Shown: positions 429 through 59,889 of the stretch, one piece after another
How positions within the stretch are numbered: position 1 is the stretch's first letter
Layout of the letters: each line of letters begins with the position of its first letter
Assembly (NCBI GenBank): GCA_000146465.1
Contig: CP001952.1
Direction: 5' to 3' (one strand)
DNA length: 64,000 nt
Notes under the pieces: generated by a model
What the model was told of the DNA's origin: nothing
What the model saw: only the letters and a program-made list of their open reading frames with translations
Databases searched by the model: none
Translations under genes and position numbers: made by a program

Positions 429-501
429 GTGACATTGGCGCAATAGGTAGCGCGCTGGTCTCATAATCCAGAGGTTGCGAGTTCGAGTCTCGCATGTCGC
501 A
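429..501 (+). tRNA. tRNA-Met, anticodon CAT, elongator type
   Basis: Manual cloverleaf: acceptor GTGACAT/ATGTCGC with discriminator A, D-stem GCGC/GCGC, anticodon stem CTGGT/TCCAG, loop CTCATAA (CAU anticodon), T-stem GCGAG/CTCGC with T-loop TTCGAGT. G1-C72 argues against an initiator. No CCA is encoded. Confidence 0.8.
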
Positions 502-11240: not shown

Positions 11241-12558
11241 TAATTTAATTCAATTTCCGGCAGGATGCAGATATTAAACCAGTTATTAGTGGATGCGGCT
11301 GGTTAGGCCTTGCAGTGAACTCAGGATGGAATTGTACTCCGACAAAAAACGGATGCGATGTAAGCTCAAAGATCTTTGCTGCTCTTCTCTCGTCGCTGAA
11401 TCCTACAAACCTCAGGCCATACGAACATAGTGAGGAAACCTCGGATCGAACAACCTCGAACCGATGTCGGTGCCTCTCTCGGATCTTCTCCGCTCCAGAG
11501 TACAACCTCTTCACAAGTCCGTCCTCAAGCTCCACCTCGTATCCCCCAACTCGCAGTTTCTTATCAACCACTCCGTTCTTGTCGCTGATAAACCTGACAA
11601 CAAGGTTCTTCCCAGACGGGTTAAACTCCTCGGAAGATGCATCCTTCATCCCAAGAACGTTCCTGCACATCTCGATAATCGATAGTTGGTATCCAAGACA
11701 GATCCCAAGAAGAGGAATCCTGTTTTCCCGTGCATACCGGATCGCCGAGATCTTCCCCTCGATCCCCCGTGCTCCAAATCCTCCCGGAATGATAATTCCA
11801 TTGCACTTCTCAAGATCCTCTGTGGTGTACGAGTCTGCATTGATCCATTCAATCTCAACATTCACCCCCACAGACGCCCCAGAGAACCTCAATGCATGCA
11901 CAAGAGACGTGTAGCTGTCAAACTCCGGCGAGTACTTCCCCACTATCCCGATCCTTACTGTGTCCTCGTGCTTCTGCACAAGTCGTTCAAACGTCTCAAG
12001 TATCTCCCGATCCCCCTCCTTCGACGAAATCCCAAGCACCTTGTTCAGCGACTCAACCATTCCGTGCTCTTCAAGGAACTTCGGCACAAGATACACCGAC
12101 TCCAGATTCGGAAGCCCAAACACATTCCCAGGCTCCACCCAGCAGTTCTTCGATATCTTCTCCCGCGTCTCCTTGCTGGGGTCCCGCACTCCCCTGCACA
12201 CAATGATGTCGTAGCTGAGCCCGAATCTCCTGAAGTTCCTGCACCCCATCTGGATACTCTTTGTTTTCTGCTCCCCACTCTCTAGCTCTACAAGATGGTC
12301 TACAGACACAAATGCACAGTTGCTCCTTCCAACAATTCTCTGGAACTTTGCAAAGGCGTCTGTGTATATAGACGACTCGCTCTCTCCAACAGTTCCCCCA
12401 AGCTCGATAATCACCACGTCTGGGATGACCCTACGTCCGCTCTTGAAGTCTTCCACAGGAGTCTCCGCCACCATCTTAATTCTTCTGATAACATCGTCTA
12501 TTGCATGTGGATTAATCTGTAATGTCTTTCCAAGAAAATGACCCTCCTTCTCACGCTT
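11241..12558. repeat. copy 1 of a 1318-bp exact direct repeat (3' 1.3 kb of CTP synthase plus ~4 nt beyond the stop codon)
   Basis: Nucleotide-identical to 58109..59426 (offset 46868). All embedded spurious ORFs in the track are identical in both copies. Flanks on both sides diverge abruptly. Confidence 0.85.
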
Positions 12559-12852
12559 AATTAAATCTTCAAATAATCTTCCACTAGATAGACTGTTTTT
12601 TCTAGAAAGATCAGACATATTAAACCTTTCATAGTTTCCAAAATCCATATCGCATGTATGTCCATCGTCAAGTACATAGACCTCACCATGTTCCCGTGGA
12701 TGGATCTCCCCAGCATTGTAGTTCAAATAAGGATCTATCTTAAAATGAGTAGTGTTGTGCCCTCTTGACTTTAGTAAAACGCCAATGCTACTACTTACTA
12801 TACCTTTTCCAATACCAGAGATAACACTTCCACAAACCATAATATATTTCAT
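11245..12852 (-). CDS. URA7: CTP synthase, paralog A (535 aa)
   Basis: N-terminal synthetase P-loop GSVISGIGKG, C-terminal class-I glutamine amidotransferase (GICLGYQL, HPEF). Residues ~98-535 are identical to paralog B at 58113..59720. Confidence 0.9.
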   Translation of the reverse strand: MKYIMVCGSVISGIGKGIVSSSIGVLLKSRGHNTTHFKIDPYLNYNAGEIHPREHGEVYVLDDGHTCDMDFGNYERFNMSDLSRKNSLSSGRLFEDLIKREKEGHFLGKTLQINPHAIDDVIRRIKMVAETPVEDFKSGRRVIPDVVIIELGGTVGESESSIYTDAFAKFQRIVGRSNCAFVSVDHLVELESGEQKTKSIQMGCRNFRRFGLSYDIIVCRGVRDPSKETREKISKNCWVEPGNVFGLPNLESVYLVPKFLEEHGMVESLNKVLGISSKEGDREILETFERLVQKHEDTVRIGIVGKYSPEFDSYTSLVHALRFSGASVGVNVEIEWINADSYTTEDLEKCNGIIIPGGFGARGIEGKISAIRYARENRIPLLGICLGYQLSIIEMCRNVLGMKDASSEEFNPSGKNLVVRFISDKNGVVDKKLRVGGYEVELEDGLVKRLYSGAEKIRERHRHRFEVVRSEVSSLCSYGLRFVGFSDERRAAKIFELTSHPFFVGVQFHPEFTARPNQPHPLITGLISASCRKLN

Positions 12853-12926
12853 TTTTAGGGATGCCTGAGAATTAACTTCTTTGAAGGAATCTAGATATTC
12901 GGATAATTTAATTTTAATTACAAACT

Positions 12927-56586: not shown

Positions 56587-56818
56587 TCCCAATTCTCCAG
56601 GGGTCCGCACTTATCTTCCCTATCCCCAGAAACATATATTTTTTTTGAAAAGACCCCTTGCTTGCCTAGCCGATAAGAACGAGTCTTTTGCCTTTTACTG
56701 AAGACTCCCATGGCTAGACACCGTGCCACACAGCAATTTTTGGAATGCTGATCAACTCAGCCTTGTTGTCGTAACATCTTCATCTAGCTTCTAAGATACA
56801 TCATCAAAAAAGAATACT

Positions 56819-57787
56819 TTAATTCTTCATCCTTTTCTTCTGTCTGTTTGCATAATCCTGGTAGTTCGAGATTATCCTGTTAACTATGTGCTCCGCAGAG
56901 AGATAGCTGAACCTATTTTCGGCATAGCTGTGCTCCACAACCTCTTTAATGCTATCGTATCTCGATAGATCCTTTGTGTCGAAAGAGGTCCCTACAATGT
57001 CGATTCCATGCTTCTCAATAAACTCCTTTCCAATCAGATAGGGCGAAATAATTACCTCGTCAACATATTTACATGACACCAATGTAAGCATTCTCTCCTT
57101 GGTCGTCATCACGGGATAGTTTCTAGTGTATTCCCTTGTGGTCTCGTCGTCATGTATCCCAACAACAAGATAGTCTCCCATTTCTCTTGCTATTTTCAAG
57201 GATACAACATGTCCGGCATGGAACAAATCAAAATTCCCATCTATAAACACCACTTTTCCTTTCCTTTCCCTTTTCATCGAGCTCACAAATAGCTCAAGCA
57301 ACTGATCATGGTATCTAGAGTTTTTGTTGCTTTCTTTGTGTTCTCCATCCAAGCAGGTTCCCCTATTCTTCAGCATCATCCGCCCGACAGTCTCAGTCGT
57401 CGAGATTCCAACCGTCCTCTCCACCTCTCTGAATATACCTGTCCTTCTCACTTGGAAGTACGAGTCCTGTCCCTTCGAATCGAGTATTATGTCGTTTCCA
57501 TGTGCTACTATACTTGCCCCGTATTCCCTAACCATGCTCATCTCTGTGACAAATGGTGCATCCTTGACAATCTCATCTACGTATCTGCATCTCTGGACGA
57601 CCTCATACCTCTCGTCATCCTCCATCACAGGTAATCCCTTTTCTCGGTTTATGCTGAGAGATGAATGAACTCCGGCTATCAGATAATCCCCCAATGCTTT
57701 GGACTGCCTTAGCGCATTTGCATGGCCGTAGTGGAACATATCAAAGCACCCGTCAGCCCAGACCTTTTGGATCTCCTTGGATGCCAT
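56819..57787 (-). CDS. ECT1: ethanolamine-phosphate cytidylyltransferase (ECT/PCYT2), tandem cytidylyltransferase domains
   Basis: Two CTP-transferase HxGH motifs (GCFDMFHYGHANALRQSK and GNFDLFHAGHVVSLKIARE). Duplicated-domain architecture typical of ECT. GGG motif adjacent to start. Confidence 0.85.
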   Translation of the reverse strand: MASKEIQKVWADGCFDMFHYGHANALRQSKALGDYLIAGVHSSLSINREKGLPVMEDDERYEVVQRCRYVDEIVKDAPFVTEMSMVREYGASIVAHGNDIILDSKGQDSYFQVRRTGIFREVERTVGISTTETVGRMMLKNRGTCLDGEHKESNKNSRYHDQLLELFVSSMKRERKGKVVFIDGNFDLFHAGHVVSLKIAREMGDYLVVGIHDDETTREYTRNYPVMTTKERMLTLVSCKYVDEVIISPYLIGKEFIEKHGIDIVGTSFDTKDLSRYDSIKEVVEHSYAENRFSYLSAEHIVNRIISNYQDYANRQKKRMKN

Positions 57788-58108
57788 TTGTTTGGGAAAG
57801 GTTCTACTTAATTATAAAGAAATTAAAATGTTTTAGATTAAAACTAGATGGATGCCCAAGAGTAAGCCTCATTCAGTTGGGTAGAACCATACCTAACAGC
57901 ATTATTCTATTGCAATGATGAAAGAAATCACTTAAGATGGCCCTTTCGGCATCGTCCGAGGACTTTCCATAGAGCTCATATGTGCTCCAACGCTGTTCTT
58001 CGGACATCCATGGGCATTTCTGGAAACTCCTAAAAATATAAAATTTTTGCTTCCAGCTTCCAACCAGAGTCCAACTAAAAAAGAAGCAGTACCAACATTA
58101 TTTAAGAT

Positions 58109-59426
58109 TAATTTAATTCAATTTCCGGCAGGATGCAGATATTAAACCAGTTATTAGTGGATGCGGCTGGTTAGGCCTTGCAGTGAACTCAGGATGGAAT
58201 TGTACTCCGACAAAAAACGGATGCGATGTAAGCTCAAAGATCTTTGCTGCTCTTCTCTCGTCGCTGAATCCTACAAACCTCAGGCCATACGAACATAGTG
58301 AGGAAACCTCGGATCGAACAACCTCGAACCGATGTCGGTGCCTCTCTCGGATCTTCTCCGCTCCAGAGTACAACCTCTTCACAAGTCCGTCCTCAAGCTC
58401 CACCTCGTATCCCCCAACTCGCAGTTTCTTATCAACCACTCCGTTCTTGTCGCTGATAAACCTGACAACAAGGTTCTTCCCAGACGGGTTAAACTCCTCG
58501 GAAGATGCATCCTTCATCCCAAGAACGTTCCTGCACATCTCGATAATCGATAGTTGGTATCCAAGACAGATCCCAAGAAGAGGAATCCTGTTTTCCCGTG
58601 CATACCGGATCGCCGAGATCTTCCCCTCGATCCCCCGTGCTCCAAATCCTCCCGGAATGATAATTCCATTGCACTTCTCAAGATCCTCTGTGGTGTACGA
58701 GTCTGCATTGATCCATTCAATCTCAACATTCACCCCCACAGACGCCCCAGAGAACCTCAATGCATGCACAAGAGACGTGTAGCTGTCAAACTCCGGCGAG
58801 TACTTCCCCACTATCCCGATCCTTACTGTGTCCTCGTGCTTCTGCACAAGTCGTTCAAACGTCTCAAGTATCTCCCGATCCCCCTCCTTCGACGAAATCC
58901 CAAGCACCTTGTTCAGCGACTCAACCATTCCGTGCTCTTCAAGGAACTTCGGCACAAGATACACCGACTCCAGATTCGGAAGCCCAAACACATTCCCAGG
59001 CTCCACCCAGCAGTTCTTCGATATCTTCTCCCGCGTCTCCTTGCTGGGGTCCCGCACTCCCCTGCACACAATGATGTCGTAGCTGAGCCCGAATCTCCTG
59101 AAGTTCCTGCACCCCATCTGGATACTCTTTGTTTTCTGCTCCCCACTCTCTAGCTCTACAAGATGGTCTACAGACACAAATGCACAGTTGCTCCTTCCAA
59201 CAATTCTCTGGAACTTTGCAAAGGCGTCTGTGTATATAGACGACTCGCTCTCTCCAACAGTTCCCCCAAGCTCGATAATCACCACGTCTGGGATGACCCT
59301 ACGTCCGCTCTTGAAGTCTTCCACAGGAGTCTCCGCCACCATCTTAATTCTTCTGATAACATCGTCTATTGCATGTGGATTAATCTGTAATGTCTTTCCA
59401 AGAAAATGACCCTCCTTCTCACGCTT
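58109..59426. repeat. copy 2 of the 1318-bp exact direct repeat
   Basis: See copy 1. Same orientation. Identity ends inside the CDS at ~codon 98. Confidence 0.85.
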
Positions 59427-59720
59427 GATCATTTCAAAAAAAATCTTTCCAGACGTTATTGCATTTGAAGCCTCAAGGTTGATGCTACTGAATCTTTCGT
59501 AGTTTCCAAGATCAAGATCGCACTCAGACCCATCTTCAAGGACATAGACCTCGCCATGCTCAGAAGGTGCAAGCATCCCTGCATTATAATTGAAGTATGG
59601 ATCAATCTTTATATGTGTTACGACGTGTCCTCTTGACTTTAGTAAAGCACCCACGCTACTACTTACTACGCCTTTTCCGGCTCCAGAGATAACTCCTCCG
59701 GAAACAAAAATGTACTTCAT
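58113..59720 (-). CDS. URA8: CTP synthase, paralog B (535 aa)
   Basis: P-loop GGVISGAGKG. From residue ~98 (IKREKEGHFLGKTLQINPHAIDD...) to the stop, the protein and underlying DNA are identical to paralog A. The N-terminal ~97 aa are ~60% identical. Confidence 0.9.
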   Translation of the reverse strand: MKYIFVSGGVISGAGKGVVSSSVGALLKSRGHVVTHIKIDPYFNYNAGMLAPSEHGEVYVLEDGSECDLDLGNYERFSSINLEASNAITSGKIFFEMIKREKEGHFLGKTLQINPHAIDDVIRRIKMVAETPVEDFKSGRRVIPDVVIIELGGTVGESESSIYTDAFAKFQRIVGRSNCAFVSVDHLVELESGEQKTKSIQMGCRNFRRFGLSYDIIVCRGVRDPSKETREKISKNCWVEPGNVFGLPNLESVYLVPKFLEEHGMVESLNKVLGISSKEGDREILETFERLVQKHEDTVRIGIVGKYSPEFDSYTSLVHALRFSGASVGVNVEIEWINADSYTTEDLEKCNGIIIPGGFGARGIEGKISAIRYARENRIPLLGICLGYQLSIIEMCRNVLGMKDASSEEFNPSGKNLVVRFISDKNGVVDKKLRVGGYEVELEDGLVKRLYSGAEKIRERHRHRFEVVRSEVSSLCSYGLRFVGFSDERRAAKIFELTSHPFFVGVQFHPEFTARPNQPHPLITGLISASCRKLN

Positions 59721-59889
59721 TTTAGGGGAGTGCTTTTGATTCTTTAAATACTTATAAATTGCTTAACGCTTATATTAATAATGTCAAAGATAAATATTTA
59801 ACAGTTCTGGATTACCGTTGGAATGTAAACGGGCTTAGGTAGCCAAGAACGAATACGCTTCTAGCGAAATTTATGGAAGCCCTTCGAGA

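Follow-up and report, generated by a model that had tools for sequence, protein, structure and literature searches.

A Pair of CTP Synthase Genes in Encephalitozoon with Distinct N-terminal Segments and a Common 3′ Part Very Probably Homogenised by Recurrent Gene Conversion

Two CTP synthase genes with identical 3′ parts

A stretch of 64,000 nucleotides (nt) of Encephalitozoon intestinalis chromosome XI (contig CP001952.1, assembly GCA_000146465.1), referred to at its full length as the window, contains two CTP synthase genes whose 3′ parts are identical and whose 5′ ends differ. The window has a G+C content of about 41% and consists of tightly packed, intron-less eukaryotic genes, as fits this organism. 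As the first-pass annotation of this DNA had reported, both CTP synthase genes lie on one strand. This is the minus strand, and each gene is an intact open reading frame (ORF) of 535 codons; the product of copy A (11245..12852) is an exact match to ADM12533.1 of E. intestinalis ATCC 50506, and that of copy B (58113..59720) is an exact match to ADM12575.2. The core of the N-terminal segment is of a derived type in copy A (A-type) and of the canonical type in copy B (B-type). We consider it very probable, from comparisons of the sequences of four Encephalitozoon species, that the genes are ancient paralogs older than the genus, and that non-reciprocal interlocus (ectopic) gene conversion, acting between the direct repeats, keeps homogenising their 3′ 1.3 kb.

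Direct comparison of the two stretches shows a perfect match of 1318 nt between positions 11241-12558 and 58109-59426, which cannot be extended by even one base on either side. In the orientation of the genes (minus strand, as for all of the features described here unless another strand is given) each of these putative converted tracts runs from nt 295 of the coding sequence (CDS), the start of codon 99, through codon 535 and the stop codon to 4 nt of 3′ flank; the limits first described, about codon 98 and about 4 nt past the stop, are thus accurate in the orientation of the genes, the strand having been left unstated. All 97 mismatches between the two CDSs fall within nt 1-294, an arrangement with a probability of about 10^-72 if the mismatches were spread uniformly. 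Over codons 1-98, which form the unconverted 5′ segments (12559..12852 in copy A and 59427..59720 in copy B), the copies agree at 197 of 294 nucleotides (67%) and at 63 of 98 residues (64%, against an initial estimate of about 60%). The flanks are unrelated both upstream and downstream, as had been noted, and share no more than a short CCC..AAA motif just ahead of the ATG of each gene. The upstream intergenic region of copy A is 74 nt long (12853..12926) and unrelated to its 169 nt counterpart at copy B (59721..59889), which is shared with a divergently transcribed MetRS gene. The observation that out-of-frame ORFs embedded in the block are duplicated along with it is true but trivial. There is no second long repeat in the 64-kb window besides that of the CTP synthase genes.

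The same mosaic at both loci in four species

Both loci were compared with their flanks, as DNA, in E. intestinalis, E. cuniculi, E. romaleae and E. hellem. The latter three species also have two CTP synthase genes each, about 40 genes apart on one chromosome, and the spacing between the A and B loci, judged from accession offsets, is conserved across species. At locus A, copy A is preceded in all four species by a gene of unknown family encoding 537-539 amino acids (aa) and followed by a convergent kinesin gene and then Pescadillo; at locus B, copy B has MetRS on one side and a cytidylyltransferase-like gene, for which we have coined the name ECT, on the other, with a DEAH helicase gene beyond the latter. 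Since the same genes flank both loci in all four species, the duplication is older than the genus Encephalitozoon. The order MetRS-CTPS-ECT is also found in a more distant relative (L011:772-3715; the source of protein P0007). One of the two origins initially put forward, a very recent partial duplication added to a paralog already in place, can be rejected, as the same mosaic is present at both syntenic loci in each of the four species.

Several lines of evidence point to conversion that has recurred throughout the genus. First, from about nt 295-320 to the stop codon, a length of about 1300 nt, the two copies within each of the four genomes differ at no more than one nucleotide. The first-pass annotation had suggested comparing tract limits among related species and phylogenies by segment, and both comparisons are informative: the 5′ limit is nearly constant, with the last mismatch at nt 294 in E. 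intestinalis, 306 in E. romaleae, 309 in E. cuniculi and 318 in E. hellem, and the identity between copies ends 1-5 nt from the stop codon in all four species. Second, uncorrected distances (p-distances) in the C-terminal part of the gene are 0.000-0.001 within species as compared with 0.19-0.275 between species, where synonymous divergence (dS) is 0.7-1.6. Distances in the core (codons 64-98; A-type, 12559..12663; B-type, 59427..59531) follow the type of gene, ranging within the genus from 0.15 to 0.35 among A-types and from 0.14 to 0.22 among B-types, as against 0.34 to 0.49 between A- and B-types. Third, in a neighbour-joining tree of the C-terminal part the two copies of each species pair with 100% bootstrap support, so that this part groups by species, whereas the core groups by type, the split between A and B having 99% bootstrap support with the distant relatives P0006 (A) and P0007 (B) included. 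In the C-terminal part P0006 and P0007 are 72% identical to each other and 59-62% identical to the Encephalitozoon sequences, which suggests that the duplication, and perhaps the homogenisation also, predates the genus.

Finally, the copies vary together among strains. Nucleotides 337, 348 and 855 differ between strains of E. cuniculi but are the same in both copies of any one strain, and residues 346 and 476 behave likewise in E. hellem; conversion is therefore ongoing and faster than the divergence of strains. The original interpretation of the repeat as a recent gene-conversion tract is thus correct as to conversion between old paralogs, but not as to a single recent tract, since the process is recurrent, genus-wide and still active within species.

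The 5′ segments are not uniformly divergent in every species. Species-specific patches of conversion are present at nt 16-108 in E. cuniculi and, except for one mismatch, at about nt 64-180 in E. romaleae, and only across codons ~64-98 do the copies differ in every one of the four species. The difference between isoforms accordingly spans residues 1-98 in E. intestinalis but only about 37-98 or 64-105 in some species.

The annotated product of the E. romaleae A locus (AFN84015.1, 550 aa; L006:4001-4045) begins 15 codons before the ATG to which the starts of all the other CTP synthases align, and this annotated start is probably too far upstream.

Base composition of the converted part

The G+C content of third codon positions (GC3) is raised in the converted part. 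In E. intestinalis it is 0.579, as compared with a mean of 0.457 (standard deviation 0.041, maximum 0.533) for the 39 other genes of the window, and it is low in the unconverted 5′ segments, at 0.265 in copy A and 0.367 in copy B. The converted part likewise exceeds the flanking genes in E. cuniculi (0.73 vs 0.574), E. romaleae (0.554 vs 0.403) and E. hellem (0.62-0.63 vs 0.469), and Fisher tests of GC3 between the 5′ and 3′ parts of the gene give p values from 1e-3 to 2e-8. The single-copy CTP synthase gene of Vairimorpha necatrix is no richer in GC3 than the genes around it, and its N- and C-terminal parts do not differ significantly in this respect. These values are consistent with GC-biased conversion as the cause of the raised GC3, a line of evidence that is supportive and not decisive.

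Enzyme identity and differences between the isoforms

Both products match the two Pfam families expected of the enzyme far above the curated cut-offs, PF06418 with 298.9 bits in copy A and 313 bits in copy B, and PF00117 with 124.4 and 124.5 bits, respectively; the A-type thus scores 14 bits below the B-type against the PF06418 profile. Both also align over their full length to CTP synthases of solved structure (E about 1e-128). On these matches the two genes are CTP synthases (PyrG/CTPS, EC 6.3.4.2), with an amidoligase domain followed by a class-I glutamine amidotransferase domain. Residues 1-102 align to the Drosophila CTP synthase without gaps, and published Drosophila residue numbers are therefore transferable to this region. 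In the Drosophila enzyme the transferred phosphate is contacted by Lys16 and Lys38, and through water by Asp70; residues 50-58 make contact with GTP and form the lining of the ammonia tunnel (PMC8325340). Lys16, Lys38, Asp70 and the tunnel residues Pro52, His55 and Val58 are kept in both copies. In an alignment of 13 microsporidian sequences C385, H509 and E511 are invariant columns, and we take these to be the glutaminase Cys-His-Glu triad of class-I amidotransferases.

An alignment gap in the glutaminase domain, around residue 340, shows that about 12 residues of the Drosophila enzyme are missing from the Encephalitozoon enzymes; in animal CTP synthases this region contributes to filament contacts.

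The differences between the isoforms surround the catalytic Asp70. Position 69 is leucine in 113 of 113 other CTP synthases, and position 71 is leucine in 111 of the 113, yet the A-type has DMDF in place of the canonical DLDL (L69M and L71F); M69 and F71, together with H65, S83, S87 and R92, are fixed in five of five A-type sequences. The B-type core carries the canonical motif DLDLGNYERF. Because the enzymes of Nosema and Vairimorpha have B-type N-termini, it is the A-type that is derived. Residues 49-53, in the tunnel segment, also set the A-type apart in E. intestinalis, E. cuniculi and P0006, and in E. hellem and E. romaleae these residues of the A copy have been overwritten by the B-type. 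The ratio of nonsynonymous to synonymous divergence (dN/dS) among orthologues of the core is about 0.04-0.17 for both types, a rough value as the core has only 35 codons.

The A- and B-types have in common Y45, N46, C67, K99 and E103, residues that are rare or absent in the 113 other CTP synthases, and they align without insertions or deletions, so that the A-type is a diverged copy from within the lineage. A foreign (horizontal) origin of the A-type segment is rejected on the same two grounds. A homology search with the A-type N-terminus alone returned short fragments only, and these say nothing on the origin of the A-type.

In V. necatrix (CP142726.1; L012:5001-9987) a single CTP synthase gene with a B-type N-terminus lies beside kinesin and Pescadillo genes, the synteny of the Encephalitozoon A locus. 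It follows that the copy at the apparently ancestral position has acquired the derived core, or that the cores were exchanged early.

The two copies also differ upstream. Two motifs before copy B, TCTATCTTTGA and ATATTTAAAGA, the latter about 20-30 nt before the ATG, are conserved across the four species and are candidate locus-specific promoter elements; both are absent upstream of copy A, which has motifs of its own that are likewise conserved across species. A functional difference between the A and B isoforms, as proposed in the first-pass annotation, is a plausible possibility.

A model for the maintenance of the mosaic, and its alternatives

According to the model of recurrent conversion, homologous recombination would use one copy to mend a lesion (a break or gap) in the other, and would do so without crossover. 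Crossing over between the repeats would instead mean the loss or duplication of about 40 genes. Deletion of the intervening 46.9 kb, which the first-pass annotation had pointed out as a possible consequence of direct repeats of this length, has left no sign in any of the genomes, and with its roughly 40 genes conserved in every species it is a theoretical possibility only. Conversion tracts would end at the stop codon because homology stops there, and near nt 295-320 because the core is 34-49% divergent, and GC bias in the process would raise the GC3 of the converted part. We further lean towards the view that selection removes tracts in which either core is replaced, the two cassettes being non-equivalent. 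The result would be two enzymes with separate promoters and distinct N-terminal cassettes joined to an identical body of 437 residues.

A more speculative extension, which we regard as possible though somewhat doubtful, is that duplication with perpetual conversion stands in, at the level of the genome, for alternative first exons in this almost intron-less organism. Two promoters under separate regulation would drive two active-site cassettes, the canonical DLDL and the derived DMDF around Asp70, together in some species with a different tunnel/GTP-contact segment at residues 49-53, and both would be joined to one enzyme body that is continuously homogenised. Selection would then keep the cassettes distinct, either because catalysis or nucleotide regulation differs between the isoforms or because the isoforms have to co-assemble as mixed tetramers, and the locus would be a built-in reporter of active homology-directed repair in spite of a depleted set of recombination genes.

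A number of observations weigh against recurrent conversion combined with selection for distinct cores. The B locus of E. cuniculi GB-M1 (L009:4001-5608) has an A-type core, its copies differing at three CDS positions, and the B-locus protein of E. hellem ATCC 50504 (P0126, from the 2012 annotation) is a B/A hybrid. These records reflect either real conversion at the level of strains or chimeric joins in older assemblies: if real, they imply that loss of the B-type core is possible, in strains kept in culture at any rate, and the argument for selection becomes weaker; if chimeric, they are irrelevant to it. The switch points of both lie in patches of identity between A and B, and it is at just such a patch that a short-read E. 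hellem assembly breaks; both core types are kept in the long-read assemblies of E. cuniculi ATCC 50602 and of E. hellem ATCC 50604 and 50451. In addition, E. cuniculi is without more than half of the homologous-recombination proteins of yeast, and the function of the pathway has been doubted (Gill and Fast, PMC1851970). The dN/dS values are made rough by saturation of dS in many comparisons as well as by the 35-codon length of the core. Two outgroup genes have a smaller GC3 contrast of the same sign (0.58-0.62 in the N-terminal part and 0.69-0.70 in the C-terminal part), and in V. necatrix too the C-terminal value exceeds the N-terminal one, although not significantly, so that the contrast may in part be a property of the gene itself. 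The independence of the E. intestinalis assemblies rests on protein accessions and the literature. Lastly, a purely mechanical barrier, with divergence blocking heteroduplex formation, would give the same boundary without selection.

This last point is the substance of the principal alternative, in which the mechanism of conversion is the same but the 5′ boundary is passive: the core would simply be too divergent for strand invasion or heteroduplex extension, through rejection by mismatch repair, and no need for two isoforms would be involved. We think this rather unlikely. In its favour, the boundary falls in every species where the highly divergent block ends, patches of conversion reach into 5′ stretches of lower divergence in E. 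cuniculi and E. romaleae, and the GB-M1 and ATCC 50504 records suggest that the B core can be replaced without obvious harm. However, a passive barrier leaves it unexplained why the core diverged while its flanks were converted, and it does not account for A-type substitutions that are fixed at near-invariant positions of the family in a segment with dN/dS well below 1; moreover, the identical patches flanking the core would permit gap repair across it, and this is seen in no long-read assembly.

Explanations without recurrent conversion fare considerably worse. The perfect identity and sharp ends of the repeat in E. intestinalis would be expected from a single very recent event in that species, whether one conversion tract or a pasted partial duplication, but this is highly improbable in view of nearly identical limits at the same loci in three other species, whose orthologues are 19-27% different, and of the co-variation of the copies among strains of two of them; short of the same mis-assembly in all of those genomes, these data refute it. 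Even less credence can be given to an assembly artefact, with one 3′ consensus placed twice or one copy non-existent. A perfect repeat of 1.3 kb can indeed mislead short-read assemblers: an E. hellem short-read contig (P0124, KAG5858991.1, a 55-aa partial protein) stops at residue 55 of the B copy, in a patch identical between A and B, and the two older assemblies discussed above have suspicious hybrid B copies. Nonetheless, both E. intestinalis proteins, with their distinct N-termini, are recorded from the original and several later assemblies; a telomere-to-telomere assembly of ATCC 50506 exists (Nanopore, PacBio and Illumina); the same structure is present in the long-read assemblies of E. 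hellem ATCC 50451 (as DNA) and E. cuniculi ATCC 50602 (as protein); and each copy is joined to unique syntenic flanks. Least probable of all, to the point of being negligible, is that the 3′ identity reflects extreme purifying selection on the nucleotide sequence itself, through an embedded RNA or antisense ORFs. Long out-of-frame ORFs are present on the opposite strand, but coding DNA of higher GC content can be expected to contain them, a search against Rfam gives no RNA family within the gene, and dS of 0.7-1.6 between species indicates that synonymous sites are free to change, which refutes this reading.

Relation to known systems

The CTP synthase pair is a new example of a process well known from textbooks, the partial concerted evolution of dispersed paralogs. 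Classic cases of interlocus conversion are the human gamma-globin genes HBG1 and HBG2, the ribosomal-protein ohnologs of yeast, and TEF1/TEF2. As in these, the CTP synthase genes are old duplicates at fixed loci, with a part that is identical within a genome yet divergent between species, sharp breakpoints, discordant trees along the gene, and an apparently GC-enriched converted tract. The pair is unlike the classic cases in being found in one of the smallest eukaryotic genomes, with very few duplicates and a depleted recombination toolkit (PMC1851970). It also differs in that its boundary is at about the same codon throughout the genus, and in that the protected block is an active-site cassette and not a flank or intron.

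Pairs of CTP synthase isozymes are familiar from human (CTPS1 and CTPS2) and yeast (URA7 and URA8), where they are thought to differ in regulation. Encephalitozoon resembles these organisms in having two CTP synthase genes in one genome, but the human and yeast pairs have diverged over their full length without concerted evolution, whereas the Encephalitozoon isoforms differ only N-terminally. The similarity to alternative first exons or promoters is one of outcome only, with two promoters and two N-terminal cassettes for one common body; there is no splicing, and the body is physically duplicated and kept identical by what is very probably conversion.

In the same organisms, subtelomeric duplications form blocks of 3-37.5 kb at chromosome ends beside the rDNA and carry multigene families (PMC10158259; PMC4704409). 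Those blocks have near-identical copies that imply homogenisation by recombination, as here, but the CTP synthase repeat is only 1.3 kb long, is intragenic, and lies in the chromosome core among housekeeping genes, in an enzyme of an essential pathway; it thus has neither the position at a chromosome end by rDNA nor the length of at least 3 kb that define a subtelomeric segmental duplication. The telomere-to-telomere paper reports only subtelomeric duplications, and on our reading its self-BLAST filter required a bit score of 5,000. By our estimate a perfect match of 1,318 nt scores about 2,400 bits, below this filter, which may be the reason why the repeat does not appear there. A literature search found no description of the Encephalitozoon CTP synthase pair or of its conversion, although publication elsewhere remains possible.

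The pyrimidine supply of these parasites is still unclear (PMC5113988). That two copies differing only in the cassette around the catalytic aspartate have been retained where the whole genus has about 2,000 genes suggests that their functions may truly have diverged. The locus also provides genomic evidence for working ectopic homologous recombination and conversion, within species too, where gene content had raised doubt (PMC1851970), and its raised GC3 would offer a natural measure of conversion bias. In practical terms the repeat breaks or mis-joins short-read assemblies, as the E. hellem contig that ends inside an A/B-identical patch attests, and the B-locus annotations of E. cuniculi GB-M1 and E. 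hellem ATCC 50504 deserve to be re-checked.

Genes neighbouring the CTP synthase loci

The cytidylyltransferase-like gene ECT (56819-57787, minus strand), whose product belongs to a CTP-using type, directly follows copy B in the four species and in the distant relative, and the two genes may form a conserved functional neighbourhood. Most of the 325-nt gap between them in the window is occupied by an RNase MRP RNA gene (57850-58010, minus strand; Rfam RF00030, 63.7 bits), situated some 100 nt beyond the copy B stop codon. A gene for the U5 spliceosomal RNA (56658-56763, plus strand; RF00020, 54.9 bits) is located between the DEAH helicase and cytidylyltransferase-like genes. Near the start of the window, a tRNA-Met (CAT) gene (429-501, plus strand) is detected by both ARAGORN and Rfam.

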